64,000 nt of DNA from an uncultured Bacilli bacterium (GCA_934086145.1 CAKOHV010000001.1:53731-117730); one strand, 5' to 3'. Shown: positions 16,906 through 35,730, counted from the stretch's first letter. Notes: generated by a model not told the origin, from the sequence alone. Numbers and translations are program-made.

Positions 16906-16914
16906 GAGCAAAAT

Positions 16915-16943: not shown

Positions 16944-16996
16944 AGTAAACCGATAAATAAAAAAACATTTTTTGTATAAAAAGGGGGAACCAAAAA

Positions 16997-17878: not shown

Positions 17879-17905
17879 AAAGACTAAATTAATTGAATTT
17901 TCTTA

Positions 17906-17975
17906 TTATAATCCTAAGTTTGATAGCTTCTTGCTAAAAAATTTTGCTATCCCTTTGTTTATAAGACTTTGAAAA
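17906..17975. repeat. Diverged partial copy of the left end of the 11969 element (including the ttataatcc junction)
   Basis: tattataatcctaagtttgatagcttcttgctaaaaaattttgctatccctttgtttataag aligns (~70%) with tgttataatcctgaatttgacagttttgaagaaaaaagtttcacaatccctttatttataag. Confidence 0.3.
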
Positions 17976-18075
17976 ATTTTATATTTCTAAAAAAATTGAC
18001 TTAATTAAAATATCCTATATAATAGTAAACCGACAAATAAAAAACATTTTTTGTATAAAAAGGGGGAACCAAAAA

Positions 18076-18966: not shown

Positions 18967-19045
18967 AAAAACTAAATTAATTGACTTGTCTTACTATAAT
19001 AGATAAAATATATGATATACTTTGTAATAAAAAAGGAGGAAAAAT

Positions 19046-19894
19046 ATGCAAGAAATAATTTGTGATACTTTAGTGGATACTGCTCGTTTAGTTCCTTTTT
19101 TATTCCTTTCGTTTATAGTAATTGAACTACTGGAACATAAGCTAAGCACTAAAACCAATAATATTTTATTAAAATCAGGAAAACTTGGTCCTTTATTAGG
19201 TAGTATCTTAGGAATGATTCCTCAATGTGGTTTTTCTGTTGTCGCTACCAATCTTTACATTACGCGTATAATTTCCCTAGGAACTTTAATTGCTATTTAT
19301 CTATCAACGAGTGATGAGATGCTCCCAATTCTCTTATCAGAAAAAGCTCCTTTCAAAGATATCGCCTTAATCCTTCTAATTAAATTTGGTGTTGCTTTAA
19401 TAGTTGGTTACCTAATTAATCTCTTCTATAAAAAGAAACCTGAAGAACATGAACACTATGATATATGTCATGAAGAACATTGCGGTTGCGAACATGAACA
19501 TCACTTAATTCAATCAAGTATGATTCATACTGCCAAAACCTTAGTATACTTACTTCTAATAACTTTTATCATCAATGTTATCTTCAACTACTTTGGTAGT
19601 CCTTACTTGAGCAAAATCTTCCTTAAAGATTCTCCATTTGGACCATTTATTACTAGTTTAATTGGTTTAATCCCTAGCTGTGGCTCAAGTATCATGTTAA
19701 CAGAACTATATTTAAAAGGTGCTATCAGCTTATCATCAGTTATATCTGGGTTACTAACTGGTAGTGGAATAGCTATTTTAATCCTTTTTAAATCAAATAA
19801 AAACTTTAAAGAAAATATGAAAATTTTGGCCATTATTTACAGTACAGGCGTTCTTACTGGCTTAATAATTCACATCCTAACAAGTATTTTTTAA
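19046..19894 (+). CDS. Putative metal-ion permease (two internally repeated halves with IPQCGFS / IPSCGSS motifs and a His/Cys-rich loop HEHYDICHEEHCGCEHEHH)
   Basis: Polytopic membrane protein with a duplicated Cys-Gly-Ser motif reminiscent of the ArsP-like 10-TM heavy-metal exporter family. The metal-binding loop is evident. Family assignment is from memory. Confidence 0.45.
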   Translation: MQEIICDTLVDTARLVPFLFLSFIVIELLEHKLSTKTNNILLKSGKLGPLLGSILGMIPQCGFSVVATNLYITRIISLGTLIAIYLSTSDEMLPILLSEKAPFKDIALILLIKFGVALIVGYLINLFYKKKPEEHEHYDICHEEHCGCEHEHHLIQSSMIHTAKTLVYLLLITFIINVIFNYFGSPYLSKIFLKDSPFGPFITSLIGLIPSCGSSIMLTELYLKGAISLSSVISGLLTGSGIAILILFKSNKNFKENMKILAIIYSTGVLTGLIIHILTSIF

Positions 19895-19954
19895 CATACT
19901 TGTTTTTGTTTGCTTCTCTTTTCCAAAAAGATGGTTCAATTTAAATAAAAAGTA

Positions 19955-19989
19955 TGTTATAATTTTCGATAGGATAGGAGAGTTTTATA
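19955..19989 (+). promoter_or_regulatory. Extended -10 promoter (TGtTATAAT) plus conserved leader tcgataggataggagagtttta, upstream of giant pilin-like gene 1
   Basis: The same architecture recurs upstream of all three giant genes (19955, 24837, 29442). Confidence 0.55.
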
Positions 19990-22900
19990 GTGAATAAAAA
20001 AGGTTTTACATTAGTAGAACTACTAGCTGTCATAGCCATTTTAGGTATCTTATCGGTCGTAGCTATCGGCGCTTATAGTGGTGTAACTAATCGTTCAAAA
20101 CAAAAAGCCTATGAATCCAAAGTTTCCCAAATTGAAACTTCGGCTGCCAAATGGGCTCGTGAAAATAATATTGACCGTACAACATCAGTTTCTGTTAATA
20201 AACTAGTCGTTGAAGGCTACTTAACAGCCGATGAAGCTACGGAAAATGGTTTATCAACTATCAAAAATCCTGTTAATAACGAAAATATGATTTGTAAGAT
20301 GGTTGAAATAACTTATAAGAATGGTGAAATCCAAACAAAATTTGATGCAACTAAAAACAATTGTAGCTTAGCTGAACAAGCCTTAAATGATACCCAAATA
20401 AAAGTTGTGGCCTATCAAAAAGGTGTGGCTGGGGCATCTGCGGCAATAAGTCCTAACTCAAACAATGCTTTAGCATGGACTAACAAAGCCTTAACTTTGG
20501 TTGTTTCAAGTGATACTTACAAAGATGAAGCCCAAAATTCTAAGGAATCAAATCCAGTTGTTGCCGTATCTTTTGACTTTAATGGTAGTACAACGGAAAA
20601 GACCATCGTCATCGATAATGCTAATCCATCAAATAAAAAATCTAATGTTTATACTGGTACTACTTATCTTGATGATACAACGACTTATTACAATACTTTC
20701 AATGTTGATGCCGCTGTTATCCTTGATAGTAATGTTGTTGTTTCATATCGTTTCAAAGATGGATCAACTAAATCTCGTACCATCAATGTTCGTATCGATA
20801 AAGAAGAAGCAACAGCTTCCGTTATTGCTACATCAGATTGGGTTACAGCCACCCAAAAAGTTATCGTTAAACTAGATGATGGTAATGGTAGTGGTGCTCG
20901 TCGCTTCTACGTTGGTGTTGGCAATGCTTATAACGATCCTGGAGTTCAAAAAGTTGACTTATGTGGTGCCAATGGTAAAAATTGTAAATATGAAAAAGAA
21001 TACAATGCTCCAAGTGTTGGGGAATACAACATTTGGACTGAAGATATGGTTGGTAATATTTCCGTCCAACCTAAAAATAAAATATCAGTCAATAACGTCG
21101 ATACTTCTACACCATCATGTAACTTCGATAATATCGGAACTATGGGTCAAAATAATTGGTATGTAACCGATGTTACACCACGTATGCGTACAAGCGTCGC
21201 TGGTAATAGTGGATTATACTTTGGTATTTCTAAAACCCAAAATGGTAAAGATAATCCTAACTATTCTAATTACGTAGGTTATGGTAGTGTAGGTATCAGT
21301 CAAGCGGCCAAACTAAGTGATACTAAGGGTCAAGATTACACTTGTTACGTTAAATCACTGGCTGGTACCAAGGCCCAAAAGAAAACTAATATCAAAGTCG
21401 ATACAACCCCACCAACTATTACCGTATCACCAACTAATCAATCTAGTAGTTACGTTAAAGAAAAAACTATTACGATTAAAGCCCGTGACACGATCAGTGG
21501 TTTAGGTAAAAATAGTCGTATAGAATACGCTTGGAGTACTGATAGCAATAACGAACCATCTACTTGGCAGACAGTTGCACTTCCAGGAACTGACTATACT
21601 GGCGAAAATGGTCCAACTGATGAAAAAACAGTGACCATAACCGCCAAAGGAATGACCGGTGTTTACTACCTTTGGATCAAAGAAGGAACTATTTCTGATG
21701 CCGCCGGAAACACTAGTCAAGGCCTACAAGGCAAATCAGCCCGCTACGGACCATATAAATTTGATAACACGCCCCCTTCTTGTGAGCTTCAAGCTGATGG
21801 TACTGTCGGTGATAACTCTTGGTATACAAGCAATGTCACTATAAGCTTTAAAACGCATAGTGATAATGATAGTGGCGTTAAAAACTATGGTATAAGTAGT
21901 ACAACCGGTTCTAAAACCGCTTCCTTAACTAGTGATACAAGTTCTAAAACTTATACTGGTTACATTGAAGATAACGCCGGTAATAAGAGCTCTTGTAGTA
22001 TTACAGTCAAAAGAGATGCCACTAAACCAAGTTGTTCTTTACAAGCCGTTGGAACAAAAGGCGAAAATGATTGGTATACAAGTGATATCACTGTTAAATT
22101 TAAAACTTCAACAGACGCTATGAGTGGTCTTGCTAAAAAAGGTATTGATAATATAGCTAATGCTGAAACACTTCATGTTACTAATGACAATACCGGTACA
22201 AAATATACTGGTTATGTTAAAGATAATGCTGGTAATATTGGAACCTGTGCAGCTTCTTATAAAATCGACCAAACGCCACCTAGTTGTAGTTTAAAAACAT
22301 CTGGTACTAATGGTGATAATGGTTGGTTTAAAAGTAATGTTACTGTTGAAGTAGCAACTCACACGGATGCTACAAGTGGTGTTGATGGCTATGGCTTAAG
22401 CACTAGTGGGGCAAACTATACTACTACTAAACTAGTTCAAAAAGATGATACATCCGGTGTAAAATATACTGGTTATATCAAAGATAAAGCCGGTAATAAG
22501 GCTACTTGTGGTCCGGTAACAGTTAAAAAAGATACTAAAGCTCCATCATGTAAATTACAAGCTAGTGGAACGCTTGGTAACAATGGCTGGTATAAAAGCA
22601 ATATTGTTATTTCTTTTAAATCTCCAACAGATGCGACTAGTGGAATTGCTGCCAAAGGTATAGGTGGCTTTGATAAAGCTGATACCCTAACTGTTGACTA
22701 TAGTACAAGTGGAACAACTTACTATGGCTTTATTAAAGACAATGCTGGTAATCAAGCAATATGTAATGCAGTATACAAAGTTGATAAAACTGTTCCAACT
22801 TGTTCAATTACAGCTAGTGGATCTTATGGCTGGAATAGTTGGTACAATTCAGATGTTGAAATTTCATTGAAGAGTAGTGGAACAGATTGGCCAAGTGGTA

Positions 22901-23853
22901 TTAAAAGTTATGGAATAGGTAGTACAACAGGTGCTACAAGCGCTAAATTGACTACTGATACTAAATCTAAAACATATACAGGATATATTGAGGATGAAGC
23001 TGGTAATATAGGATCATGTGCCGTTACCGTTAAAAGAGATACTACACCACCTTCTTGTACATTAAGCAAGACTTGTACAAACTCGGGCGAAAATGGTTGG
23101 TGTAAATCAAATGTTGGTATTAAATTTAGTTCTACCTATGATGCTATGAGTGGGGTAGATGGTTATGGTATAGGTGGCTATTATAACTATCCAAGAGAAA
23201 AAACACTAGATTACGACTCTGGAGCCAATGGTGTAACATATATTGGATATATTGCCGATAAAGCTGGTAATACAAGTTCATGTTATACAACAGCTTATCG
23301 TGATACAATTCCTCCAGCATCATCAATATGTTCATCTGGCTTTAGAGTAAGTGGAACATCTGGTAATTCCGGCTGGTACCGTTCCAGCGTAACATTAACT
23401 TCTACTAGTAGTGATGTTAATTATTTCAAGGTAAATGGAGCAAGTACAAAGTATTATTCTACTTATACAATGTCTAGTGATGGTAGCCATTCCGCTGCTA
23501 TAACAATTTATGATGATGCTGGAAATAGTACTACTTGTCCGACAAAATATTTTTCAATCGATAAAACATACCCAACCCTTTGGGTTTCCAATGCTGATAA
23601 TGGTTGTCCTGCCGGCGTAAATAAAACTTACCGAACCGGTAATGTTTACGATGCCACAAGTGGATTATCAAAAGCTGATTCTTCTTACCTTATAGGTGCG
23701 GATCTTGAACATGCCGCTTACAAATCGCCAGTAACTCCAAATGGAGCCCATTCTGGAAAAGAAGGCTTTTGCTCAGGAATTGGATCGTTGTATGCATCAT
23801 GGACTCTTTGTGATATTGCAGGTAATTGTACTTATGATTCAGGTTCATGGTAG
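19990..23853 (+). CDS. Giant (1287 aa) prepilin-type protein: type IV pilin N-terminal domain + ~6 tandem ~90-aa Cys-pair Ig-like modules + conserved Cys-rich C-terminal domain
   Basis: GTG start. N-terminus MNKKGFTLVELLAVIAILGIL is the prepilin peptidase cleavage/methylation motif (G|FTLVE). Repeats begin [TK]xPSC[ES]L[QK]A.GT.G.NGWY; C-terminal EGFCSG...CDIAGNC. Paralogous to the 24870 and 29475 genes. Confidence 0.8.
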   Translation: MNKKGFTLVELLAVIAILGILSVVAIGAYSGVTNRSKQKAYESKVSQIETSAAKWARENNIDRTTSVSVNKLVVEGYLTADEATENGLSTIKNPVNNENMICKMVEITYKNGEIQTKFDATKNNCSLAEQALNDTQIKVVAYQKGVAGASAAISPNSNNALAWTNKALTLVVSSDTYKDEAQNSKESNPVVAVSFDFNGSTTEKTIVIDNANPSNKKSNVYTGTTYLDDTTTYYNTFNVDAAVILDSNVVVSYRFKDGSTKSRTINVRIDKEEATASVIATSDWVTATQKVIVKLDDGNGSGARRFYVGVGNAYNDPGVQKVDLCGANGKNCKYEKEYNAPSVGEYNIWTEDMVGNISVQPKNKISVNNVDTSTPSCNFDNIGTMGQNNWYVTDVTPRMRTSVAGNSGLYFGISKTQNGKDNPNYSNYVGYGSVGISQAAKLSDTKGQDYTCYVKSLAGTKAQKKTNIKVDTTPPTITVSPTNQSSSYVKEKTITIKARDTISGLGKNSRIEYAWSTDSNNEPSTWQTVALPGTDYTGENGPTDEKTVTITAKGMTGVYYLWIKEGTISDAAGNTSQGLQGKSARYGPYKFDNTPPSCELQADGTVGDNSWYTSNVTISFKTHSDNDSGVKNYGISSTTGSKTASLTSDTSSKTYTGYIEDNAGNKSSCSITVKRDATKPSCSLQAVGTKGENDWYTSDITVKFKTSTDAMSGLAKKGIDNIANAETLHVTNDNTGTKYTGYVKDNAGNIGTCAASYKIDQTPPSCSLKTSGTNGDNGWFKSNVTVEVATHTDATSGVDGYGLSTSGANYTTTKLVQKDDTSGVKYTGYIKDKAGNKATCGPVTVKKDTKAPSCKLQASGTLGNNGWYKSNIVISFKSPTDATSGIAAKGIGGFDKADTLTVDYSTSGTTYYGFIKDNAGNQAICNAVYKVDKTVPTCSITASGSYGWNSWYNSDVEISLKSSGTDWPSGIKSYGIGSTTGATSAKLTTDTKSKTYTGYIEDEAGNIGSCAVTVKRDTTPPSCTLSKTCTNSGENGWCKSNVGIKFSSTYDAMSGVDGYGIGGYYNYPREKTLDYDSGANGVTYIGYIADKAGNTSSCYTTAYRDTIPPASSICSSGFRVSGTSGNSGWYRSSVTLTSTSSDVNYFKVNGASTKYYSTYTMSSDGSHSAAITIYDDAGNSTTCPTKYFSIDKTYPTLWVSNADNGCPAGVNKTYRTGNVYDATSGLSKADSSYLIGADLEHAAYKSPVTPNGAHSGKEGFCSGIGSLYASWTLCDIAGNCTYDSGSW
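21770..23310 (+). repeat. Array of ~90-aa Ig-like coding repeats inside giant pilin-like gene 1 (approximate bounds)
   Basis: Recurring PSC-x-L...NGWY...D..SG...YTGY..D.AGN..C modules. Bounds estimated by eye. Confidence 0.45.
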
Positions 23854-23868
23854 AATAGAGGAGATAAA

Positions 23869-24669
23869 ATGAAAAAAGATAAGAAAAAAATAATTATAAT
23901 AAGCTTAATTGCTGTTGCAGTTATTGCTTTAATTGTTATCATCGTTGTAGCTTGCTTACCTAAAAAAAATAAAACAGAAGACAAAAAGCAGGACGAAGCT
24001 CCAATTTACACACCAGAAATTGCTGCTGCTCAATTAAAGGACTATGAAATAGGCAACTTTAAATTTCATGATATAAAAGTTCTTCCTGCTTGTGCTAAAG
24101 AAGAAGAGTGCTTTTTAGCTAATAGCTACTTTAGACAAATCAGTTATAAAGAAGATAATGCCGTAATTAATGAAGCTTTAACAACTATCAATAATAAAAC
24201 TAATGAATATTATGATCGTATAAATGCTCCAGAAAATACAAAATCATGTGACAAATATGTTAGAAATCTATACTATAAACCATCTGTTGAAACTTTTGAA
24301 AATGACCAATACATTAGTATTGCTGTTTCTAATAATCTTGGAGCACTATGTGATGCCAAATCTCTTTATGAAGATGGTGAATATTACATCTATAGTAAAG
24401 AAAGTCAAACAATGCTAACTAAAGAAGAAATATTAACTTCTTTCAATCTAACAGAAGCTGATATTCTTAGCAAAATTAATAAATACTATAAAAAAGATAC
24501 TTTAGCTGATTTAGATTACAATATCTTTATTAGTGTAACTGGGGAATTAAAAATAACATTCCTTGGCGATGATGGTCGTTATTATATTACTCTTCAAGAA
24601 TTGTATAAAGAAAGTCAAGATGATCAAAAAAATCAAAGTAGTGGTCTTACCGATATTGATTTTGAATAG
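23869..24669 (+). CDS. Hypothetical N-terminally membrane-anchored protein co-transcribed with giant pilin-like gene 1
   Basis: Starts 15 nt after the pilin stop with RBS AGAGGAG. TM segment IIIISLIAVAVIALIVIIVVA. Cys-containing extracytoplasmic domain. Confidence 0.55.
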   Translation: MKKDKKKIIIISLIAVAVIALIVIIVVACLPKKNKTEDKKQDEAPIYTPEIAAAQLKDYEIGNFKFHDIKVLPACAKEEECFLANSYFRQISYKEDNAVINEALTTINNKTNEYYDRINAPENTKSCDKYVRNLYYKPSVETFENDQYISIAVSNNLGALCDAKSLYEDGEYYIYSKESQTMLTKEEILTSFNLTEADILSKINKYYKKDTLADLDYNIFISVTGELKITFLGDDGRYYITLQELYKESQDDQKNQSSGLTDIDFE

Positions 24670-24679
24670 TGAACTTCTT

Positions 24680-24710
24680 AAGCTTACACCTAAAAGTGTA
24701 GGCTTTTTTT
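24680..24710 (+). terminator. Rho-independent terminator
   Basis: Stem aagcttacac/gtgtaggctt (9 of 10 paired) with a 6-nt loop, then a T7 run. Confidence 0.65.
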
Positions 24711-24836
24711 AATACTTTTACACTTTAAAATTTTAATTTTTTTCTTAACTAAGCCCTTTAAAATCGAGGACTTTTAAAAGAAGAAAATTAAAATTCAACA
24801 AAAATGAAAAAGATATCACAAATTTATAAAAATGTA

Positions 24837-24869
24837 TGGTATAATTCTCGATAGAATAGAGGCGTTTAT
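24837..24869 (+). promoter_or_regulatory. Extended -10 promoter (TGgTATAAT) + conserved leader, upstream of giant gene 2
   Basis: tatggtataattctcgatagaatagaggcgtttatATG; homologous to the elements at 19955 and 29442. Confidence 0.55.
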
Positions 24870-27800
24870 ATGCATAATAAAAAAGGTTTTACATTAGTTG
24901 AATTATTAGCTGTTGTAGCCATTCTTGGTATATTATCCATTGTTGCTATCGGTGCTTATAGTGGCATAACCAATAGATCAAAACAAAAAGCCTATGAATC
25001 TAAAGTTTCGCAAATCGAAACATCAGCTGCTAAATGGGCTCGTGAAAACAATATTGATCGTACAACTTCCATTTCTGTTAACAAACTGGTTGTTGAAGGT
25101 TACTTAACGGCTGATGAAGCAACTGAAAATGGTTTATCAACTATCAAAAATCCTGTTAATAACGAAAATATGATTTGTAAGATGGTTGAAATAACTTATA
25201 AAAATGGTGAGATTCAAACCAAATTTATTGATAATAAAAATAATTGTACGCTTGCTGAGCAAGCTCTAAATGATACGAAGATAAAAGTTGTTGCGTACCA
25301 AAAAGGGGTTACGGGAGCATCTGCTGCTTTAAGTCCTAATTCAAACAATGCCTTAGCATGGACAAACAAAGCCTTAACTTTAGTTGTTTCTAGTGATAAT
25401 TATAAAGATGAAGCCCAAAATAGTCGTGAAACCAATCCTATTGTTTCAGTATCCTTCGATTTTAATGGTAATACAACTGAAAAAAATGTTGTCATTGATA
25501 GTACTAATCCTTCTAAAAAGAAGTCTAATGTTTATACAGGTAACACCTATATTGATAATATTGATGCTTATTACAATGTTTTCAACGTTGATGCAACTGT
25601 CATTCTTGATAGTAACGTAGTTGTTTCATACCGCTTTAAAGATGGTTCAACTAAATCACGTACTATCAACGTTCGTATTGATAAAGAAGAAGCAACCGCT
25701 TCCGTTATTGCTACATCAGATTGGGTTACAGCCACCCAAAAAGTAATCGTTAAACTAGACGATGGTAATGGTAGTGGTGCGCGTCGCTTCTATGTTGGCG
25801 TTGGTAATTCTTACAATGCACCAGGCGTTAATAAAGTTGAATTATGTGATGCCAACGGCAAAAATTGTAAATATGAAAAAGAATACAATGCTCCAAGTGT
25901 TGGAGAATACAACATTTGGACTGAAGATATGGTTGGTAATATTTCCGTCCAACCTAAAAATAAAATCTCAGTCAATAACGTCGATACTTCTACACCATCA
26001 TGTAACTTCGATAATATCGGAACTATGGGTCAAGGCAACTGGTATATAACTGATGTTATCCCACGTATGCGTACAAGCGTCGCTGGTAATAGTGGTTTAT
26101 ACTTTGGTATTTCTAAAATTCAAAATGGTAAAGATAATCCTAATTATTCTAATTACGTTGGGTATGGTAGTATAGGTATCAGCCAAGCTGCTAAATTAAG
26201 TGATACTAAGGGTCAAGATTATATTTGTTATGTAAAATCATTAGCGGGTACAAAAACCCAGAAGAAAACTAATATTAAAGTTGATACAATTCCACCAACT
26301 ATTACCATATCACCAACTAATCAATCTAGTAGTTATGTTAAAGAAAAAACTATTACAATTAAAGCTCGTGATACTATTAGTGGTTTAGGTAAAAATAGTC
26401 GTGTAGAATATGCTTGGAGTACCGACAGCAATAACGAACCATCTACTTGGCAAACGGTTGCTCTTCCAGGAACTGACTATACTGGGGAAAATGGTCCAAC
26501 TGATGAAAAATCAGTAACCATAACCGCTAAAGGTATGACTGGTGTTTACTACCTTTGGATTAAAAAAGGAACAATTTCTGATGCTGCTGGTAATGCTAGT
26601 GAAGGCTCTCAAGGCAAATCAGTAAGATATGGTCCTTTCAAATTTGATAACACACCACCTTCTTGTGAATTGCAAGCTGCTGGTACTATCGGTGATAACG
26701 CTTGGTATACAAGCAATGTCACTATAAGCTTTAAAACGCATAGTGATAATGATAGTGGCGTTAAAAACTATGGTTTAAGTAGTATAACGGGTTCTAAAAC
26801 CGCTTCCTTAACTAGTGATATAAGTTCTAAAACTTATACTGGTTACATTGAAGATAACGCCGGTAATAAGAGTTCTTGTAGTATTACAGTTAAAAGAGAT
26901 GCTACTAAACCAACTTGTTCTTTAGAAGCTAAAGGAACCAAAGGCACAAATAATTGGTTTACTAGTGATATCACGGTCAAATTTAAAACATCAACTGATG
27001 CTATGAGCGGCCTCGTAAGAAAAGGAATAAATAGTATCAATAATGCTGATACACTACGGGTTACAACTGACAACACTGGTACAAAATATATTGGTTATGT
27101 TAAAGATAATGCGGGAAATGTCGGAACCTGTGAAGCAACTTACAAGATTGATAAAACAGCTCCTACATGTGCCCTTAAAGTTACAGGAAATCTTGGTGAT
27201 AATGGTTGGTATAAGAGTAATACTACGATTACAGTTGATACTCATACTGATGCCACAAGTGGTGTCGATGGTTATGGTTTAAGTACCAATGGTTCAATTA
27301 ATTATACCAATACTTACCTCACTCAGACTCTTGATACCAAAGGTGTAATATACACTGGTTATATTAAAGATAAAGCTGGTAATACGGCAACTTGTGGCCC
27401 AGTAACTATTAAAAAGGATAGTAAAGCTCCATCATGTCAATTACAGGCTTCTGGTACTAAAGGCGAAGACAATTGGTATGTAACTAACGTTAACGTTAGT
27501 TTCAAAGCTCCATCAGACGCCACAAGTGGTATTGCCAAAAAAGGTATTGGTGGTTTTGATAATGCTGATACTCTTACCATAAATTATGATACAACTGGTA
27601 CAACATATTATGGTTTTATTAAAGATAATGCTGGTAACTCAGCGATTTGTAATGCTACTTATAAAGTCGATAGAACTAAACCAACATGTTCATTAAAAAC
27701 AAGTGGTACAGCTGGTGAAAATGGTTGGTACCGAGGCGATGTTGCTGTCGAATTCGCTAGTTATAATGATTGGGCTAGTGGTATAAGTGGTCATGGTTTA

Positions 27801-29237
27801 AGTACTAACGGCACTGCAAATTATACTAATACCAAACTTACCCAAACTAGCGATACCACTGGAACAACATACACTGGCTATGTCAAAGATAATGCTGGTA
27901 ATAAGAACTCTTGTAGTGTTACAGTAAAAAGAGACACTCAAGCTCCATCGTGTGAATTACAAGCCAGTGGAACCGAAGGAGAGAATGGTTGGTATAAAAG
28001 TGGTATTACTGTTTCCTTTAAATCCGCCACTGATACCACAAGCGGAATTGCTCTAAAAGGTCTAGGTGGGTATTATGGTTCAGCTACAGAAACACAAAAT
28101 GATAATACAGCTGGCAAGAATTATACCGGCTATGTCAAAGACAACGCTGGTAATACGGCAACGTGTACAGCAACTTATAAAATTGATAAAACCGTTCCAA
28201 CTTGTTCAATAACAGCTAGTGGAACTTATGGTTGGAATAGTTGGTATATTACAGATGTTGCTATTTCATTAAAGAGTAGTGGAACAGATTGGCCAAGCGG
28301 CGTTAAAAGCTATGGTATAGGAAGTTTAGGTGGCGAAAAATCAGCTACTTTAAATTACGATACTTCTTCTAAAAAATATACTGGCTATATTGAAGATGAA
28401 GCTGGTAATACGAATTTTTGTTCTATTGAAGTTAAAAGAGATGCTACTAAACCTTCTTGTACGTTAAGCAAGTCATGTTCAACCTGGGGAGAAAATGGTT
28501 GGTGTAAATCTAATGTTGGTATTAAATTTAGTTCAACTTATGATGCTATGAGTGGGGTAGATGGTTATGGTATAGGTGGCTATTATAACTATCCAAGAGA
28601 AGCAACACTAGATTACGACTCTGGAGCCAATGGTATATCGTACTTTGGATATATTGTTGATAAAGCTGGTAATACAAGTTCATGTAGTACAACAGCATAT
28701 CGTGATACAACTCCACCAGCTGCTTCATTGTGTTCTACTGCTGTTAGCAAAAGTGGAACCCTTGGTAATGAAGGATGGTACAGGTCAGATGTTACTGTAT
28801 CTACAACAAATAGTGATATAAGTTACTTTAGATTAGATGGTCAAGCTAAAACAACGCTTACAACAGATGGCTACCACACAGTCACTTTATATGATGCTGC
28901 TGGTAACAGTAGAGAGTGTGATAAAATTAAAATCGATAAAACTAATCCGACTATAGACATATTGAGTTACGTACCAGCATGTCCAAGTGATGCTAAAGTA
29001 AATTATCGTATGGGGCATGTTACTGATGCTACAAGCGGTATATCTAAAAACTCATACTATTGGGTTGGTACGAGCAAAGATGACAAAAAATATTATCCAG
29101 GAGCAACTCCTCACGAATCAAATGAAGGCGTAGAAGGTTTTTGCTCGGGGAAAAACACTTTATATACTGCATATCATACATGTGATGTAGCAGGTAATTG
29201 TATTAATGGATCTTGGTCATGGGATACAACGCCATAG
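24870..29237 (+). CDS. Giant (1455 aa) prepilin-type protein, paralog 2 (~8 Ig-like modules)
   Basis: MHNKKGFTLVELLAVVAILGIL prepilin signal. The first ~600 aa are highly similar to gene 1. More repeat modules. Same C-terminal Cys-rich domain (EGFCSG...CDVAGNC). Confidence 0.8.
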   Translation: MHNKKGFTLVELLAVVAILGILSIVAIGAYSGITNRSKQKAYESKVSQIETSAAKWARENNIDRTTSISVNKLVVEGYLTADEATENGLSTIKNPVNNENMICKMVEITYKNGEIQTKFIDNKNNCTLAEQALNDTKIKVVAYQKGVTGASAALSPNSNNALAWTNKALTLVVSSDNYKDEAQNSRETNPIVSVSFDFNGNTTEKNVVIDSTNPSKKKSNVYTGNTYIDNIDAYYNVFNVDATVILDSNVVVSYRFKDGSTKSRTINVRIDKEEATASVIATSDWVTATQKVIVKLDDGNGSGARRFYVGVGNSYNAPGVNKVELCDANGKNCKYEKEYNAPSVGEYNIWTEDMVGNISVQPKNKISVNNVDTSTPSCNFDNIGTMGQGNWYITDVIPRMRTSVAGNSGLYFGISKIQNGKDNPNYSNYVGYGSIGISQAAKLSDTKGQDYICYVKSLAGTKTQKKTNIKVDTIPPTITISPTNQSSSYVKEKTITIKARDTISGLGKNSRVEYAWSTDSNNEPSTWQTVALPGTDYTGENGPTDEKSVTITAKGMTGVYYLWIKKGTISDAAGNASEGSQGKSVRYGPFKFDNTPPSCELQAAGTIGDNAWYTSNVTISFKTHSDNDSGVKNYGLSSITGSKTASLTSDISSKTYTGYIEDNAGNKSSCSITVKRDATKPTCSLEAKGTKGTNNWFTSDITVKFKTSTDAMSGLVRKGINSINNADTLRVTTDNTGTKYIGYVKDNAGNVGTCEATYKIDKTAPTCALKVTGNLGDNGWYKSNTTITVDTHTDATSGVDGYGLSTNGSINYTNTYLTQTLDTKGVIYTGYIKDKAGNTATCGPVTIKKDSKAPSCQLQASGTKGEDNWYVTNVNVSFKAPSDATSGIAKKGIGGFDNADTLTINYDTTGTTYYGFIKDNAGNSAICNATYKVDRTKPTCSLKTSGTAGENGWYRGDVAVEFASYNDWASGISGHGLSTNGTANYTNTKLTQTSDTTGTTYTGYVKDNAGNKNSCSVTVKRDTQAPSCELQASGTEGENGWYKSGITVSFKSATDTTSGIALKGLGGYYGSATETQNDNTAGKNYTGYVKDNAGNTATCTATYKIDKTVPTCSITASGTYGWNSWYITDVAISLKSSGTDWPSGVKSYGIGSLGGEKSATLNYDTSSKKYTGYIEDEAGNTNFCSIEVKRDATKPSCTLSKSCSTWGENGWCKSNVGIKFSSTYDAMSGVDGYGIGGYYNYPREATLDYDSGANGISYFGYIVDKAGNTSSCSTTAYRDTTPPAASLCSTAVSKSGTLGNEGWYRSDVTVSTTNSDISYFRLDGQAKTTLTTDGYHTVTLYDAAGNSRECDKIKIDKTNPTIDILSYVPACPSDAKVNYRMGHVTDATSGISKNSYYWVGTSKDDKKYYPGATPHESNEGVEGFCSGKNTLYTAYHTCDVAGNCINGSWSWDTTP
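26650..28720 (+). repeat. Ig-like coding repeat array inside giant gene 2 (approximate bounds)
   Basis: Eight modules starting PSCELQAAG, PTCSLEAKG, PTCALKVTG, PSCQLQASG, PTCSLKTSG, PSCELQASG, PTCSITASG, PSCTLSKSC. Confidence 0.45.
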
Positions 29238-29298
29238 ATAAAAAATATAAAAGAATGTTTTATGTTAAACACTAAAACATAATTACTATAAATAAAAA

Positions 29299-29329
29299 AG
29301 TTAACGTTCAAGAAACGTTGGCTTTTTTT
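29299..29329 (+). terminator. Rho-independent terminator after giant gene 2
   Basis: Hairpin around aacgtt/aacgtt arms (agttaacgtt-caagaa-aacgttggct), then a T7 run. Confidence 0.5.
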
Positions 29330-29441
29330 AAATCTAAATATTTTTGATATACGTTTAATAATTGCTAAAGCAAATATGAAAAAAACTTATTTAAAAAAAT
29401 AATTTTTATTATAAAAGTTAATTTAAATCATCAAAATTGTA

Positions 29442-29474
29442 TGATATAATCATTAGTAGGATAGAGGAGTTTGT
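29442..29474 (+). promoter_or_regulatory. Extended -10 promoter (TGaTATAAT) + conserved leader, upstream of giant gene 3
   Basis: tatgatataatcattagtaggatagaggagtttgtATG. Confidence 0.55.
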
Positions 29475-32400
29475 ATGAGTAGTAAAAGAAGTCGTAGTAA
29501 AAATAATAAAAAAGGATTTACCTTAGTTGAATTGCTTGCCGTTGTTGCCATCTTAGGAATTGTATCTGTCATTGCCATTGGAGCATATAATGGAATTTCA
29601 AATCGTTCAAAACAAAAAGCTTATGATTCTAAGGTCTCTCAAATTGAAACATCAGCTGCCAAGTGGGCTCGAGAGAATAATATTGATCGAACAACATCCA
29701 TTTCTGTTAATAAATTAGTCGTTGAAGGCTACTTAACTGCTGATGAAGCGACCGAAAATGGTCTTTCCATTATTAAAAATCCTAAGACTAATGAAAATAT
29801 GATTTGTAAAATGATTGAAATAAGTTATAAAAATGGGGAAATTCAGACTAAATTCATCGATAGTAAGGACAATTGTACTTTAGCCGAGCAAGCTTTAAAT
29901 GATACTAAAATAAAAGTAATTGCCTATCAAAAAGGTGTTACTAAAACGGCTGCAGCTTTAAATCCAAACTCTAATAATATTTTACCTTGGACAAACAAAG
30001 CTGTAAGTTTAGTTGTTTCTAGCGATGCTTATAAAGATGAAGCCCAAAATAGTCGTGAAACCAATCCAATTGTTTCTACTTCTTTTGACTTTAGTGGTAA
30101 TAGTAACGAAAAGAAAGTTATTATAGATAATTCAAATCCTTCAAACAAAAAATCCAATGTATATTCTGGCAAAGCTTATGTTGACAATCCCGATGCTTAC
30201 TATAATGTCTTTAACGTTGATGCCAGCATTATTCTTGATAGTAACGTTGTTGTTACATATCGTTTCAAAGATGGTACAACAAAATCAAGAACTATTAATG
30301 TTCGTATTGATAAAGAAGAAGCTACAGCTTCTGTAATTGCTGAATCTGACTGGGTTACAAATACTCAAAAAGTAATTGTTAAAATCGACGATGGTAATGG
30401 TAGTGGAGCTCGTCGCTTCTACGTTGGAGTCGGTAATGCCTATAATGCTCCTGGAGTCGAAAAGGTTGAATTATGTGATAGCAATGGTAAAAACTGTAAA
30501 TATGAAAAAGAATATAGTGCTCCAAGTGTTGGTGAATATAACATTTGGACAGAAGACATGGTTGGCAATATTTCTGTTAATCCTAAAAATAAAATTTCTG
30601 TTAATAACGTTGATACATCTGTGCCATCATGCTACTTCGATAATATCGGAACAATGGGCCAAAATAATTGGTATGTAACAGCCGTAACACCTCGTATGAA
30701 CACTAGTACTGCCGGAATAAGTGGACTATATTATGGTATTTCTAAAGGAACCAATAATCCTAATTACAAAAATTATGTTGGGTATAATGCCGTTGGTACA
30801 AGTACCGCTGCCAAAATTAATAACGATACACAAGGTCAAGATTATACCTGTTATGTTAAATCACTTGCTGGTAATGAAGCTAAAAAGACCTCAACAATTA
30901 AAGTTGATACAACTCCACCAACTATAACAGTTAGCCCAACTAAACAAGAAACTTATGTTAAATCACAAAAAATTACCATCACAGCTAAAGATACAATTAG
31001 TGGTTTAGGTAAAAATAGTAAAATAGAATATGCTTGGAGTACTGATAGCAATAACGAACCATCTACTTGGCAAACGGTTAATCTTCCAGGAACTGACTAT
31101 ACTGGGGAGAATGGCCCAACTGATGAAAAAACAGTAACCATAACCGCCAAAGGAATGACTGGTGAATATTATCTTTGGATAAAAAAAGGTACTATAAGTG
31201 ATGTTGCTGGAAATAGTAGTGTAGGAAAAAATGGTAAGTCAATTAATTATGGTCCATTTAAATTTGATAATACTGCGCCAGAATGTGAACTCAAAGCCGA
31301 AGGAAAAAAAGGAGATAATGATTGGTATACTGGTAATGTTGAAATTAGTTTTAAATCAACTTCAGATGTTGGCAGTGGTGTTAAAAGTTATGGTATTAAT
31401 AGTACAACTGGTTCTGAAACAGCTTCCTTAACTAGTGATACAAGTTCTAAAACTTATACTGGTTACATTGAAGATAAAGCTGGTAATAAGAGTTCTTGTA
31501 GTATTATAGTAAAAAGAGACACTGAATCCCCATCATGTGAATTACAAGCAACCGGAACAAAGGGCGATGATGGTTGGTATAAAAGTGATATTAAAGTTTC
31601 CTTTAAATCAGCCACTGACAAAACAAGTGACGTTGATAAAAAAGGGATAAATGGTATTGATAAAGATGATACTCTTGATGTTTATACAGAAACCGACGAT
31701 AAAGGCGAAACTTATACAGGCCACGTAAAAGACAAAGCCGGTAATACTGGAACTTGTAAGGCAACTTACAAAATAGATAAAACAGCCCCAAGTTGTAGTA
31801 TAAAAATTTCAAGTAAACCAACTGGTAATAAAGATTGGTATGTAAGTGATAGTGTTACTATAGAGTTTGATGGTGACGTTACTGATGCCCGTAGTGGTGT
31901 AAGTGGTTATGGTTTAAGTAGTGATGGAAAAGCTAATTACAAAGATAACAAAATAACTCATACCGCAGATACTACTGGAATAACTTACATTGGCTATGCT
32001 ATAGATAAAGCCGGCAATACGACAACATGCGGTTCGGTTACCTTTAAAAAAGATTCAACAAAACCTTCTTGCTCATTAAAAACAAATTGCTCAGCTATTG
32101 GGACGCAAGTAAGTGATACAACAGACAAATATTGGTGCAAGTCAAGTACCGTAGACGTTGAATTTGCTACGACAAATGACGCTACTAGTGGGATTGTAAA
32201 AAAAGTTATAAGCACTGAAGGTGAAGCTGAAGCTAAAGATAGTATTTTTAGCAATATTCCTGATACAGGGGCTAACGGTAAAAGTTATACAGGTTTTGTG
32301 GAAGATGAAGCTGGTCATAAAGCCGATTGTAAGTTAACTGTTTATAAAGATTCAGTTGCTCCGGCAGAATCTTTATGCACCAGTACTAAGCTTAAAGAAA

Positions 32401-32978
32401 GTGTTGCCGAAGGTACTGAAGCAGGTAGAAATGACTGGTATCGAGGTAATGTTACAATAACATCAACCGATAGAGATGTCAGTTACTTTACGGTAAATGG
32501 TAAGGGAAGTTATACAAGCAGTTATACTATTGAATCTGAAGGAGAACATGAGATAAACATTACTCTATATGATGCGGCGGGTAATGGTATGAGTTGCTCA
32601 ACCAAATTTATAAAAATCGATAAAACTAATCCAATATTTATCACAACAGGAGACGATCCAGGGTGTCCGACTAAAAAAAAAGAAACTGATCCAGAATATA
32701 AAACATGGCGTAAGGGTATCGTAACAGACGATGTAAGTGGCATAGATCCGAACCCTGAATATACAAATTATAAAATTGGTGCAACAGCAGACACTATGGC
32801 TGATTTTAATCCTGCTACAAAGAAAAAAGGTGCAAAAATCGGGTACGAAGGCTTCTGCTCAGGTGGTACAGAAGTACATATAAAATACAACATCTGTGAT
32901 ATGGCAGGTAATTGCATTAAAGGCAATAATTTTTGGAAACAACCACCACCTCCACCTCCTGAAACCAAAACTTCGTAA
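29475..32978 (+). CDS. Giant (1167 aa) prepilin-type protein, paralog 3 (~4 Ig-like modules, poly-Pro C-terminal tail)
   Basis: MSSKRSRSKNNKKGFTLVELLAVVAILGIV prepilin signal with a longer leader peptide. Diverged C-terminal region ending FWKQPPPPPPETKTS. EGFCSG...CDMAGNC is retained. Confidence 0.8.
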   Translation: MSSKRSRSKNNKKGFTLVELLAVVAILGIVSVIAIGAYNGISNRSKQKAYDSKVSQIETSAAKWARENNIDRTTSISVNKLVVEGYLTADEATENGLSIIKNPKTNENMICKMIEISYKNGEIQTKFIDSKDNCTLAEQALNDTKIKVIAYQKGVTKTAAALNPNSNNILPWTNKAVSLVVSSDAYKDEAQNSRETNPIVSTSFDFSGNSNEKKVIIDNSNPSNKKSNVYSGKAYVDNPDAYYNVFNVDASIILDSNVVVTYRFKDGTTKSRTINVRIDKEEATASVIAESDWVTNTQKVIVKIDDGNGSGARRFYVGVGNAYNAPGVEKVELCDSNGKNCKYEKEYSAPSVGEYNIWTEDMVGNISVNPKNKISVNNVDTSVPSCYFDNIGTMGQNNWYVTAVTPRMNTSTAGISGLYYGISKGTNNPNYKNYVGYNAVGTSTAAKINNDTQGQDYTCYVKSLAGNEAKKTSTIKVDTTPPTITVSPTKQETYVKSQKITITAKDTISGLGKNSKIEYAWSTDSNNEPSTWQTVNLPGTDYTGENGPTDEKTVTITAKGMTGEYYLWIKKGTISDVAGNSSVGKNGKSINYGPFKFDNTAPECELKAEGKKGDNDWYTGNVEISFKSTSDVGSGVKSYGINSTTGSETASLTSDTSSKTYTGYIEDKAGNKSSCSIIVKRDTESPSCELQATGTKGDDGWYKSDIKVSFKSATDKTSDVDKKGINGIDKDDTLDVYTETDDKGETYTGHVKDKAGNTGTCKATYKIDKTAPSCSIKISSKPTGNKDWYVSDSVTIEFDGDVTDARSGVSGYGLSSDGKANYKDNKITHTADTTGITYIGYAIDKAGNTTTCGSVTFKKDSTKPSCSLKTNCSAIGTQVSDTTDKYWCKSSTVDVEFATTNDATSGIVKKVISTEGEAEAKDSIFSNIPDTGANGKSYTGFVEDEAGHKADCKLTVYKDSVAPAESLCTSTKLKESVAEGTEAGRNDWYRGNVTITSTDRDVSYFTVNGKGSYTSSYTIESEGEHEINITLYDAAGNGMSCSTKFIKIDKTNPIFITTGDDPGCPTKKKETDPEYKTWRKGIVTDDVSGIDPNPEYTNYKIGATADTMADFNPATKKKGAKIGYEGFCSGGTEVHIKYNICDMAGNCIKGNNFWKQPPPPPPETKTS
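31270..32340 (+). repeat. Ig-like coding repeat array inside giant gene 3 (approximate bounds)
   Basis: Modules starting PECELKAEG, PSCELQATG, PSCSIKISS, PSCSLKTNC. Confidence 0.4.
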
Positions 32979-32996
32979 TAAACAACTTCTTAATTA

Positions 32997-33028
32997 AAAG
33001 CTTTTGCCTTCCCAAGCAAAAGCTTTTT
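32997..33028 (+). terminator. Rho-independent terminator after giant gene 3
   Basis: Perfect 12-bp stem aaaagcttttgc/gcaaaagctttt with an 8-nt loop, then a T-run. Confidence 0.7.
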
Positions 33029-33126
33029 AAAAATAGAACAAGTTACGATAAATATGGTAAAATATAAAAAAATAGAAAGGAATATTAATTGTATGGATCT
33101 TTTATATAATTAATTAGAAAGATAAT

Positions 33127-35730
33127 ATGAATTTTTATGATAAAAATATTAAAGAAACTTTAAAATTATTAGAATCTAGTGAAGATGGTTTATCGAAGAA
33201 AGAAGCCCAAAAACGTTTAGAAAAATATGGTCCTAATGAACTACCACGACCAGCGCAAGAGAGTATTTTTCAACTATTCATTTCCCAATTTCAAAATCCC
33301 ATCGAACTTATTTTAGTCATGACTGTTATTTTTTCCTTTATTGCTAAGGAATATATTGATGGCACTGCCTTAATCTTTATTATTTTAGTTGATGTCATTA
33401 TGGGAACTTACGAAGAATGGAAAGCTCGCAAAGATGCCGAAAGTTTAACTAATATGATCAAAGTAACGGCTCGTGTTATTCGTGATGGCAAAGAAATTGA
33501 AATTCCTTCTAAAGAACTTGTCGTAGGGGATTTAATGCTTCTTGAAAGTGGCGATAAGATAAGTGCTGATGCTCGTATCATTGAATCACATAATTTTCAA
33601 GTAAATGAGTCTTCTTTAACTGGGGAAAGCCTTGGTATTGTCAAAAATAATGAAGCTTTAAAAGAAGGAATTCCTTTGGCCGAACGTAAAAATATGGCTT
33701 ATGCAGGAACCACGGTCATTACCGGTCGCGCCCAAGTTATCATAACGGCTACCTCAACGGCTACTGAAATTGGTCGCATTGCTGATAAAGTAAGTAATAC
33801 GGTTGAAGAGAAATCCCCATTAACCATCAGAATCGAAAAATTTTCTAAGCAAATCAGTATTATTATAATTTTTATTGCTATTATTACAACTTGTGTTTTA
33901 TTAAGTAAAGGTTATCCTTTAAATTCAATTTTTTTAAGTGTTATTGCCCTAAGTGTCTCAGCTATGCCTGAAGGTCTTCCTCTTGCTTTAACGATGGCCT
34001 TAACAATTGCTTCTAAAAGAATGGCTAAGAAAAATGTTATTGTAAAAAAATTAAATTCAGTCGAATCTCTGGGAAGTTGTACGGTCATTGCTTCTGATAA
34101 AACGGGCACCCTAACTGTTAATGAACAAACGGCTAAAGAAATCGTCTTGGCTGATGGTTCTAGATATGAAGTAACTGGATCTGGTTATAATGGCGATGGA
34201 AAAGTAATTCCGCTTGCGGGGGCTGACTTAGAGAGAGCTCGTGAAATTGCTTTACTTGGAGCTCTTAATAATGAAGCACACCTTGAACTAAAAGGGGATA
34301 CATGGGACTCTTTTGGTGATTCTATTGATATTGCTTTCTTAAGCTTAGCGGCTAAATTAAATATTACTTCAAAACCAACTATCATCGAAACGATTCCTTA
34401 TGAATCAGAAAATCAATTTTCAGCTGTTTTTTATCAAAAAGGCCATGATACTTACTGTACTATTAAAGGCTCATTAGAAAAAATTTTAACCTTTGCTACT
34501 CCCGAAGCTAAATATTATCAGCAAAATGAAGAATTAACTAAAAAAGGTTATCGTATTATTGCTCTTGCTGATGGTAAGGTAAATGGTACTACTTTAGCTG
34601 ATATTAAAAATTTAACTTTTAAAGGAATGGTTGCTTTCATTGATCCAATTAGAAATGAAGTTAAATCATCTTTACAAGAATGTCAAAAAGCCGGCATAAA
34701 AGTTGTTATGATAACAGGGGACCATCCTTTAACGGCCTTTGCGATAGCTAAAGAATTAGGACTATGTTCTAAGAAAGAAGAAGTTGCAACTTTTAAAGAA
34801 GTTGATGAATATCGTAAAAGAGGGGAAAAACAATTTGATGAGTTTGTTAGTAAAATAAAAGTATTTTCTCGTGTAACGCCTCTTGATAAACTAGATATTG
34901 TTAATTCTTTTAAAAGACAAGGTGAATTTATTGCGGTAACAGGTGATGGCGTTAATGATGCTCCGGCTATTAAAGCGGCCAATATTGGTATTGCTATGGG
35001 TTCCGGAACTGATGTTGCTAAAGAAACTGCTTCCATGATTGTTACTGATGATAACTTTACTTCAATTGTTGAGGGAATTAAAGAAGGACGTACGGCTTAT
35101 AGCAATATTCGTAAAATTATTTTATTCTTATTAGGTTGTGGCTTTGCTGAAGTAGCTTTCTTCCTTTTATCAATTGCTTTTGGTTATGATATTCCGCTTG
35201 TTGCTATTCAATTACTATGGTTAAACATTGTTACCGATGGGATGCAAGATGTGGCTTTATCTTTTGAAAAAACCGAAAAAGATGTCATGAATGCTAAACC
35301 TCGTTCTACAAAAGAGTCACTATTTTCTAAAGACTTAATGATTGAAGTTTTAATTTTAGGTATTACAATAACCTTTGTGGTTTTCTTAACTTGGAAATTC
35401 ATGCTTGATAATGAAACAGACCTTATAACAGCTCGTTCTGTTATCATGATGCTAATGGTTTTCGTTCAAAATGTTGACGTCTTAAATTGCCGTAGTGAAA
35501 AGAAATCCGTCTTTAAAAAGACTTTATTAGATAATAAAATGGTCTTATTAACCGTTTTTGGTTCAATTATTCTCCAAGTTATTGTTTCTGAACTTGATTT
35601 TACTGCTCAATTCTTAAAAGTAACTCCTTTAGCCCCAATAACTATTGCTAAAATATTCTTCTTATCACTAATTATTATTGCGGTCTTTGAAATTTATAAA
35701 ATTTTCCTTTTATTATTTAAGAAAGACTAA
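33127..35730 (+). CDS. Cation-translocating P-type ATPase (type IIA, Ca2+-ATPase-like)
   Basis: 867 aa with the DKTGTLT phosphorylation site (IASDKTGTLTVNE), TGES-like actuator region and GDGVNDAPAIK hinge motif. Extended -10 tggtaaaat upstream. Confidence 0.85.
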   Translation: MNFYDKNIKETLKLLESSEDGLSKKEAQKRLEKYGPNELPRPAQESIFQLFISQFQNPIELILVMTVIFSFIAKEYIDGTALIFIILVDVIMGTYEEWKARKDAESLTNMIKVTARVIRDGKEIEIPSKELVVGDLMLLESGDKISADARIIESHNFQVNESSLTGESLGIVKNNEALKEGIPLAERKNMAYAGTTVITGRAQVIITATSTATEIGRIADKVSNTVEEKSPLTIRIEKFSKQISIIIIFIAIITTCVLLSKGYPLNSIFLSVIALSVSAMPEGLPLALTMALTIASKRMAKKNVIVKKLNSVESLGSCTVIASDKTGTLTVNEQTAKEIVLADGSRYEVTGSGYNGDGKVIPLAGADLERAREIALLGALNNEAHLELKGDTWDSFGDSIDIAFLSLAAKLNITSKPTIIETIPYESENQFSAVFYQKGHDTYCTIKGSLEKILTFATPEAKYYQQNEELTKKGYRIIALADGKVNGTTLADIKNLTFKGMVAFIDPIRNEVKSSLQECQKAGIKVVMITGDHPLTAFAIAKELGLCSKKEEVATFKEVDEYRKRGEKQFDEFVSKIKVFSRVTPLDKLDIVNSFKRQGEFIAVTGDGVNDAPAIKAANIGIAMGSGTDVAKETASMIVTDDNFTSIVEGIKEGRTAYSNIRKIILFLLGCGFAEVAFFLLSIAFGYDIPLVAIQLLWLNIVTDGMQDVALSFEKTEKDVMNAKPRSTKESLFSKDLMIEVLILGITITFVVFLTWKFMLDNETDLITARSVIMMLMVFVQNVDVLNCRSEKKSVFKKTLLDNKMVLLTVFGSIILQVIVSELDFTAQFLKVTPLAPITIAKIFFLSLIIIAVFEIYKIFLLLFKKD

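Follow-up and report, generated by a model that had tools for sequence, protein, structure and literature searches.

A tandem array of giant modular pilin-like genes, probably diversified by exchange between paralogs, in an uncultured gut bacterium

Giant pilin-like genes and their modules

A 64,000-nucleotide (nt) stretch of DNA from an uncultured Bacilli bacterium (GCA_934086145.1, CAKOHV010000001.1:53731-117730), hereafter the window, contained three giant genes in tandem, whose predicted products resemble type IV pilins and which probably exchange sequence with each other. Positions are counted from the first letter of the window, and the features of this array and the small pilin genes described below are all on the + strand. 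Gene 1 (19990..23853) starts with GTG and encodes a protein of 1287 amino acid (aa) residues with 6 canonical modules (21775-23313). Gene 2 (24870..29237) encodes 1455 aa with 8 canonical modules (26658-28715), and gene 3 (29475..32978) encodes 1167 aa with 4 canonical modules (31278-32360) and a proline-rich C-terminal tail. An open reading frame (ORF) of 266 aa with an N-terminal transmembrane segment (23869..24669) is located between genes 1 and 2, while the intergenic region between genes 2 and 3 (29238..29474) holds the gene 3 promoter and the junction of a one-gene indel. The region 21770-32340, singled out in a preliminary description made from the sequence alone, matches the span of the modules, of which the first in gene 1 begins at 21775 and the last in gene 3 ends at 32360.

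All three proteins possess the N-terminus KKG/FTLVELLAV, a class III signal peptide with Glu at +5. They matched Pfam PF07963 (N_methyl) with 29.5-32.8 bits (cutoff 21.2; E = 5e-7 for gene 1) and NCBIfam TIGR02532 with 27-30 bits (cutoff 16.3). The only matches in sequence searches of the PDB were the N-terminal helices of pilins, with coverage of the helix only. The leader of the gene 3 protein has 14 aa and is rich in Lys, Arg and Ser. An AlphaFold2 model of this protein, built from a 51-sequence alignment, had a mean predicted local distance difference test (pLDDT) score of 79. In this model, an alpha1 helix (residues 17-67) is followed by a small beta head with strands at residues 74-77, 112-132 and 146-152 (pLDDT of 46-85 for this part) and then by ~12 beta-sandwich domains in series. 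Foldseek searches with the whole model returned tandem immunoglobulin (Ig)-like arrays, such as the neck of GhpA (9flp, E = 3e-21). Common to the three proteins are a conserved N-terminal part of ~600 aa, a rod of modules and a divergent C-terminal domain. A modular pilin has been defined as a pilin module with at least one extra structural module that is not specific to type IV pilus biology, and the most extreme one in the published survey had 860 aa (Raynaud et al., 2021, PMC8179133). The modelled gene 3 protein combines a pilin module with its series of beta-sandwich domains in just this way. Judged by their sequences and by this model, the three proteins are predicted to be giant modular type IV pilin-like proteins.

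The canonical modules, delimited with PxC anchors and a module hidden Markov model (HMM), are 84-99 aa long and occupy aa 596-1108 in gene 1, 597-1282 in gene 2 and 602-962 in gene 3. Their numbers of 6, 8 and 4 agreed with the earlier suggestion that protein length tracks a module number of about 6, 8 and 4. In addition, each gene encodes one further module that is degenerate and C-proximal, and one domain at ~aa 375-475 that resembles a module. The modules share the signature PxC...GWY...SG...YxGYxxDxAGNxxxC, with two cysteines per module. By position, modules 1-4 of gene 1 match modules 1-4 of gene 2, and modules 5 and 6 of gene 1 match modules 7 and 8 of gene 2; the extra modules 5 and 6 of gene 2 (27681-28196) explain its excess in length over gene 1. 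Gene 3 has modules 1-3 and a diverged last module. A single-module model from the 18 copies in the window (pLDDT 94) was PKD/Ig-like, with a template modelling (TM) score of ~0.6 to PKD domains at weak E-values. Searches of Pfam and NCBIfam and PDB profile searches placed nothing above threshold for the modules: HYR reached 20.4-20.6 of the 21.7 bits required and Big_3_2 13.4 of 23.3, and when the modules were scanned one by one, HYR was touched by 3 of 18, at E >= 0.03.

The modules had also been described as variable-copy coding repeats and a substrate for module gain or loss; if this is taken to mean unstable repeats, the findings diverged from that description. Tandem Repeats Finder detected no module arrays on 19-36 kb. 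Module pairs within one gene were 38-63% identical in protein and at most 70% identical in DNA, with exact matches of at most 22 nt, and the orthologs of close strains kept the same module counts (1287 and 1287, 1455 and 1456, and 1167 and 1167 aa). Slippage-prone repeats were thus rejected, because the modules within a gene are too diverged for their number to be changed by slippage. Frequent module gain or loss inside a gene did not hold up either, as the only module-number variants were two chimeric genes described below.

Exchange between paralogs and variation among strains

A 50-mer that the preliminary description had quoted as recurring across the paralogs, slightly diverged in gene 3, was found exact at 21958 in gene 1, with 1 mismatch at 26841 in gene 2 (chance expectation 0) and with 4 mismatches at 31461 in gene 3. 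The claim that genes 1 and 2 are close to identical over their first 1.8 kb, however, was overstated. The two genes were 86.9% identical there (76-96% per 150-nt bin), and their longest exact run was 77 nt. Over the first 937 codons, their synonymous divergence (dS) was 0.55-0.71 (~0.6) and the ratio of nonsynonymous to synonymous divergence (dN/dS) was 0.07-0.2; toward the C-terminus, dS rose to ~2. Constraint thus declines along the proteins, in which the base is conserved and the distal end variable, and these dS and dN/dS values indicate that the high protein identity between the paralogs mainly results from purifying selection.

Such values, together with the shortness of the longest exact run, are what would be expected if the genes were old tandem duplicates without ongoing exchange, with most of their similarity due to constraint rather than homogenization and the near-identical blocks being the most constrained codons. 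However, the synonymous identity between genes 1 and 2 was locally 89-96% in three patches, the differences of gene 2 between strains that are otherwise 99-100% identical were clustered in tracts equal to gene 1, and the number of genes varied between strains. We therefore regard old duplicates without exchange as quite improbable.

The tracts were found by comparison of the window with metagenome contigs from other strains of the same species, which carry exact or close copies of the proteins and have flanks 98-100% identical to those of the window. For the sites at which a window gene differed from its ortholog, a site-pattern test recorded which allele the other paralogs carry, and the counts were compared with those for the rest of the gene by Fisher's test. 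Comparison of strains had been proposed in the preliminary description; carried out on these contigs, it brought out mosaic tracts between paralogs but constant module numbers in the orthologs. The flanking DNA and gene 1 were 99-100% identical between strains (P0004, 99.3%), so that gene 1 is invariant, while genes 2 and 3 had sharply bounded divergent patches.

Two of the tracts are in gene 2, and the site-pattern tests pointed to gene 1 as the donor of both. In module 1 (26678..26729), the window allele equals gene 1 at 14 of 15 differing sites (p = 5e-5). Module 1 of gene 2 is 95% identical in DNA to module 1 of gene 1 in the window and 89% identical to it in the ortholog of other strains, and the same tract was also flagged by a within-window permutation test on runs of agreeing sites. 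In module 8, the window allele of a tract of ~214 nt (28469..28682) equals gene 1 at 49 of 55 sites (p = 4e-11). The stretch 28480-28700 is 92% identical to gene 1, versus 73% for the other-strain ortholog, and module 8 is closer to module 6 of gene 1 than to its own ortholog in both DNA (91 versus 78%) and protein (87.5 versus 77%). Outside both tracts, the differing sites of gene 2 were split 73:66:43 among those at which the window allele, the other-strain allele or neither equals gene 1. A third tract, of 157 nt, is in gene 3 (30993..31149). Of its 41 differing sites, 35 have the allele of gene 1/2 in the window (p = 2e-9), while the alleles of other strains lean toward a fourth paralog that encodes 1309 aa.

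The C-terminal domain of gene 2 (28770..29237) also differed sharply between strains. Although the strains compared are 99-100% identical elsewhere, the window allele of this domain and its ortholog were 79% identical in DNA with a dS of 0.66, compared with a dS between strains of 0.02-0.07 upstream of the domain. No donor was found among the known paralogs, and this allele is therefore most likely an allelic replacement from an unsampled source. An origin of the domain from the 1309-aa paralog by unequal crossover inside the genes was considered and rejected, as its best match is its own ortholog, at 79%.

The strains also varied in the number of giant genes. The commonest haplotype, found on more than 20 contigs, has four giant pilin genes in the order 1287-266-1456-1309-1167, in which the 266-aa ORF is included. 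The three-gene order of the window, with exact gene 2 and gene 3 proteins, was found on at least 11 independent contigs of up to 148 kb from different samples, studies and assemblers. Because it was recovered from so many independent contigs, the three-gene haplotype is taken to be real. At the syntenic locus of a sister species, a single 1139-aa giant gene is accompanied by a small ORF. Gain or loss of whole genes at this locus (1, 3 or 4 genes) is supported by these sequences. The junction between the three- and four-gene haplotypes is intergenic, near 29344. The ~100 nt from 29238 to ~29344, which contain the gene 2 terminator, are 85% identical to the spacer between gene 2 and the 1309-aa gene of four-gene strains, and the sequence from ~29344 on is 94% identical to the spacer between the 1309-aa gene and gene 3.

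In one further haplotype (L028), a cassette-like hypervariable stretch that spans the module region of gene 3 (30875..32630) is replaced. Its identity to the window is 46-72% within this stretch and 95-100% over the remainder of 23 kb, and the 1.7 kb found in its place resembles the modules of the 1309-aa paralog, with 85% identity to that region. With flanks 98-100% identical, this replacement and the tracts of 14/15, 49/55 and 35/41 sites bear out the gene conversion and mosaicism between paralogs that the preliminary description had anticipated. Moreover, gene 2 and the 1309-aa gene of four-gene strains, whose remaining modules do not exceed 65% identity, have in common an exact block of 204 nt in module 5, a further footprint of conversion.

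The two module-number variants switch from one paralog to the other inside this 204-nt block. P0002 (contigs L015 and L016) has the head of gene 2 and the tail of the 1309-aa gene, and P0003 (L017) is the reciprocal chimera. Both may be products of real unequal crossover or of faulty assembly. Contigs L015-L017 had been considered as proof of reciprocal unequal crossover and were downgraded, because their junctions fall in the exact repeat. These contigs are also the ones that best fit the explanation that all the mosaicism is an artefact of metagenome assembly, in which short-read assemblers jump between paralogs at shared k-mers and produce spurious hybrids and spurious differences in gene number: they carry the paralog switches of P0002, P0003 and P0011 in that block at 2.7-3.6x coverage, and L017 resembles a walk around a cycle in the assembly graph. 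However, the window haplotype was recovered many times by several studies and assemblers, the four-gene haplotype recurred on more than 20 contigs, the conversion tracts are inexact copies of their donors (92-96% identical) and thus cannot be graph jumps, and the C-terminal allele of gene 2 matches no other sequence of the locus. An assembly artefact is hence improbable as the source of the mosaicism.

Separately, comparison of L017 (8216-16630) with L018 (10187-18574) showed the array joined to the downstream genes of a second pilin locus, which encode a 233-aa ORF and a MiaB-like radical SAM enzyme. The join runs through a hybrid gene of 1233 aa. It may reflect a large rearrangement, but chimeric assembly by way of the pilin sequence common to both loci is more likely.

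Transcription signals, pilus genes and genomic setting

Upstream of gene 3, an extended -10 element (TGnTATAAT) is located at ~29443 and was the sole site flagged by a promoter scan; similar TATAAT-type sequences upstream of genes 1 and 2 were not flagged. Terminators were found upstream of genes 2 and 3. All copies in the array are full-length ORFs with a start codon, a ribosome-binding site and an upstream TATAAT-type sequence. The giant genes are thus predicted to be independent transcription units.

The organism presumably belongs to a reduced-genome lineage in which programmed surface variation systems are common. A multigene family of surface proteins with shared homology blocks and documented non-reciprocal transfers would also be consistent with programmed, high-frequency antigenic or phase variation within a clone, as in the pilE/pilS system of Neisseria or the surface-protein systems of Mycoplasma. 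However, silent, promoterless or truncated donor cassettes that serve a single expression locus were absent from the array, in which every copy is full-length. No G-quadruplex (G4) motif, (G3+N1-7)x4, was found on either strand of 19001-33500, no simple sequence repeats or poly-G/C tracts were found at the locus, and no convincing invertons were found upstream of the giant genes, where only weak AT-rich inverted repeats are present. Phase variation, raised as a possibility in the preliminary description, was rejected for these reasons. Moreover, haplotypes were recovered identically in many samples, and tracts at such a distance from their donors are not fresh. A programmed switch is therefore the least probable of the explanations considered. 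The comparisons point to diversification at the level of the population by homologous exchange, rather than to programmed on/off or cassette switching.

Pfam searches of ~40 ORFs in the 64-kb window detected no gene for a prepilin peptidase, for PilB/PilC-type assembly or for other parts of a type IV machinery. Ordinary type IV pilins are nevertheless encoded there, by two genes in tandem (59341-60078 and 60429-61166) with products of 245 aa that matched Pfam N_methyl at E = 1e-9 and TIGR02532. The two proteins are identical, and over 738 nt the genes differ by 4 synonymous changes, none of which lies beyond the first 111 nt, while their flanks are ~92% identical; this looks like concerted evolution. 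These 245-aa pilins are candidate major subunits of a filament that would carry the giant pilins. Furthermore, a distant uncultured Tenericutes metagenome-assembled genome (MAG) contains a giant pilin homolog of 1317 aa (P0020; raw ORF, 1342 aa) that is 35% identical (L010, 8187-15384). Directly downstream of it lie genes for two ATPases, an AAA_31 (ParA/TadZ-like) one and one of the T2SSE family, and then an ORF of 318 aa without a match. This gene order suggests a link between a Tad-like assembly module and the giant pilin family.

The family is sizeable and uncharacterized. With the conserved N-terminal 595 aa as query, 400 cluster representatives were found at E <= 1e-10 in 1.84 billion proteins, most of them with 600-1500 aa and with the match starting at residue 1. 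At least 6 dispersed giant pilin copies were present in the genome of UMGS1573, and a second locus with a 1286-aa paralog was seen in related gut metagenome contigs. One contig of UMGS1573 (L008), considered as a candidate for four tandem pilins, was rejected, as motif inspection revealed one pilin only. Some family members have long, Lys-rich leaders before the GFTLVE motif, of 65 aa (L018, 10001-13861), 48 aa (L009, 9863-12640) and 43 aa (L011, 6878-8023), all three far longer than usual prepilin leaders. Next to the giant pilin gene of L009 are five consecutive paralogous ORFs of ~300-325 aa (16447-21444). Four of four scanned singly had a Tim44-like domain, and five such matches were found across all loci. 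A literature search yielded no account of giant pilins from RF39, Tenericutes or TANB77; a paper on pilins of TANB77 deals with Tad-type pilin-like proteins of 143-236 aa.

These results bear on the main rival for the role of the proteins, in which they are not pilus subunits. The class III signal would serve only for export and anchoring, as it does in sugar-binding proteins of archaea or in pseudopilin-like anchors, and the proteins would be free-standing stalk adhesins with Ig repeats. Their diversification would be driven by phages or host immunoglobulin A (IgA) acting on a cell-surface coat instead of a filament. With 1167-1455 aa, the subunits are too large to be packed into the body of a filament, the window is without assembly genes, the family is multi-copy and dispersed, and the long leaders of some members are atypical for pilins. 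However, ordinary-sized pilins are also encoded in the window, the distant homolog adjoins a T2SSE ATPase, and the known modular pilins PilB and PilC of S. sanguinis and CofB are filament subunits located at the tip (PMC8179133). On balance, such a non-filament role is rather unlikely, although it carries more weight than any other alternative.

The window has a GC content of ~30% and also contains housekeeping genes, such as dnaB/dnaI-like genes, fmt, gyrB/gyrA and genes for transketolase and a P-type ATPase. Almost all array homologs came from human-gut metagenome assemblies. The GTDB species genomes with relatives of the array proteins were UMGS1573 and another MAG, both of uncultured Tenericutes. 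The organism uses genetic code 11 and appears to be walled, because a penicillin-binding protein dimerization domain is present in contigs of its relatives. The position of the 266-aa ORF after the first pilin gene is conserved, and in the sister species it is occupied by an ORF of 262 aa. A family search with it gave no significant match, and homology to the 233-aa ORF of the second pilin locus was rejected after comparison. Upstream of the array, the tandem paralogous ORFs at 16997-17878 and 18076-18966 (293 and 296 aa; DNA ~85% identical, without a Pfam match) correspond to a single 300-aa copy in the sister species (L026). The 1258-aa ORF at 12408-16184 is kept in all strains and the sister species and had zero Pfam or NCBIfam matches. 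Downstream, contig L024 (4671-7080) has, after gene 3, a 476-aa ORF and a P-type ATPase that is reduced to its C-terminal domain (244 aa), in place of the intact 867-aa ATPase; an insertion or deletion may have occurred there. Finally, an A9 homopolymer (32673-32681), the sole long homopolymer in the locus, codes for KKK in the C-terminal domain of gene 3, and no frameshifted alleles at this run were seen among the homologs.

Proposed mechanism and relation to known systems

On all the evidence, the locus is probably a series of tandem genes, each transcribed on its own, for giant modular type IV pilins that are diversified by exchange between paralogs in an uncultured gut bacterium. Each protein starts with a class III signal peptide and would be anchored in the membrane or in the filament core by its long hydrophobic alpha1 helix. 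Above this anchor would stand a base of ~600 aa under strong purifying selection, then 4-8 PKD/Ig-like modules and then a fast-evolving C-terminal domain. A prepilin peptidase would cleave the proteins, which would then be displayed on the surface, as membrane-anchored stalks or at the tip of a type IV filament whose building blocks may be the 245-aa pilins at 59-61 kb. Contact with ligands, antibodies or phages would be made by the distal modules and the C-terminal domain, and it is their diversification that would be selected. The 5' halves of the genes, 75-90% identical, and the patches in the module region would provide the homology for RecA-type exchange. Its outcomes seen in the DNA are the 50-220 nt tracts from gene 1 to gene 2, the 157-nt tract of gene 3, the 1.7-kb cassette, the presence or absence of a gene and the imported C-terminal alleles. 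The net effect would be diversification of a surface fibre at the population level.

Several points weigh against this reading. The pilin head fold was modelled at moderate confidence, with pLDDT 46-85 in residues 30-140. As the window is without type IV machinery, assembly of the giant proteins into a filament is inferred. The direction of the gene 3 tract is ambiguous, as either lineage may be the converted one. The identity between tracts and donors is 92-96%, not 100%; therefore, either the exchanges happened some time ago or the actual donor allele is missing from the sample. P0002 and P0003, the chimeras that would prove unequal crossover inside genes, come from short, low-coverage short-read contigs, with junctions in the 204-nt exact repeat, and may be artefacts of assembly. 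Finally, all comparison data are metagenome assemblies, from which the rate of switching within a clone is not derivable.

With about 1.4-1.7 times the length of the largest modular pilin in the published survey, the giant pilins extend a recently recognized route for adding functions to type IV filaments. They belong to an uncultured gut lineage of which almost no surface biology is known. A single array displays three outcomes of recombination, namely short tracts, cassette replacement and gain or loss of whole genes, in otherwise clonal strains. The locus could be used as a marker for strain typing and is a candidate determinant of the interaction with the host or with phages. A bolder proposal, which we hold to be doubtful, is that the giant Ig-repeat pilins, a family of some 400 clusters with several copies in each of the genomes examined, serve as the principal variable coat of a prevalent, uncultured lineage of the human gut with reduced genomes. 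They would be stalk adhesins displayed on type IV filaments and diversified, under pressure from host IgA or phages, by a network of exchange among tandem and dispersed full-length paralogs. If so, they would constitute a class not described before, functionally analogous to the variable adhesins of mycoplasmas and built on a pilin chassis.

Similar to the modular pilins PilB and PilC of S. sanguinis and CofB of enterotoxigenic Escherichia coli, the giant proteins have a class III signal and a pilin module fused to non-pilin modules, and their bulk points to a location at the tip, as in PilB, PilC and CofB (Raynaud et al., 2021, PMC8179133). Different from these, they have 1167-1455 aa compared with the extreme of 860 aa in the survey (PMC8179133), carry ~12-16 Ig/PKD-like domains without a Pfam match above threshold for the modules instead of one effector module, and are encoded in tandem arrays of recombining paralogs without adjacent assembly genes. 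Similar to the pilE/pilS system of Neisseria, short tracts are transferred non-reciprocally between pilin paralogs with conserved blocks. Here, however, sequence is donated by complete genes with promoters of their own and not by silent cassettes, the G4 initiator was not found at this locus, the variation is between strains, and the variable part consists of Ig-like modules instead of the pilin head.

In the reduced-genome, host-associated bacterium Mycoplasma genitalium, the large adhesin MgpB/MgpC is diversified via homologous copies, the MgPar repeats, as the giant pilins would be here. However, the protein families are unrelated, truncated archive copies are absent here, and this organism appears to be walled and uses code 11. 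In the streptococcal alpha C/Rib proteins, the staphylococcal Aap/SasG proteins and Bap, the repeats are near-identical in DNA and their number changes by slippage. Like the giant pilins, these proteins have a stalk of repeated Ig-like modules whose number differs among family members, but the modules of the giant pilins are at most 70% identical in DNA, with exact matches of at most 22 nt, and their orthologs keep the module number. The best Foldseek matches, the neck of the GhpA grappling hook (9flp) and the PKD domains of clostridial collagenases (4jgu, 6aem and 2y72; TM score ~0.6), are similar at the level of the fold only, with sequence identities of 12-19% and E-values for a single module of 0.009 or weaker. 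In the models, this resemblance is that of a generic beta-sandwich, with no sign of a common function. Thus, the locus combines two known kinds of system, modular pilins and recombining families of surface-protein genes, in a family that is unusually large and undescribed and by a mechanism that is conventional.

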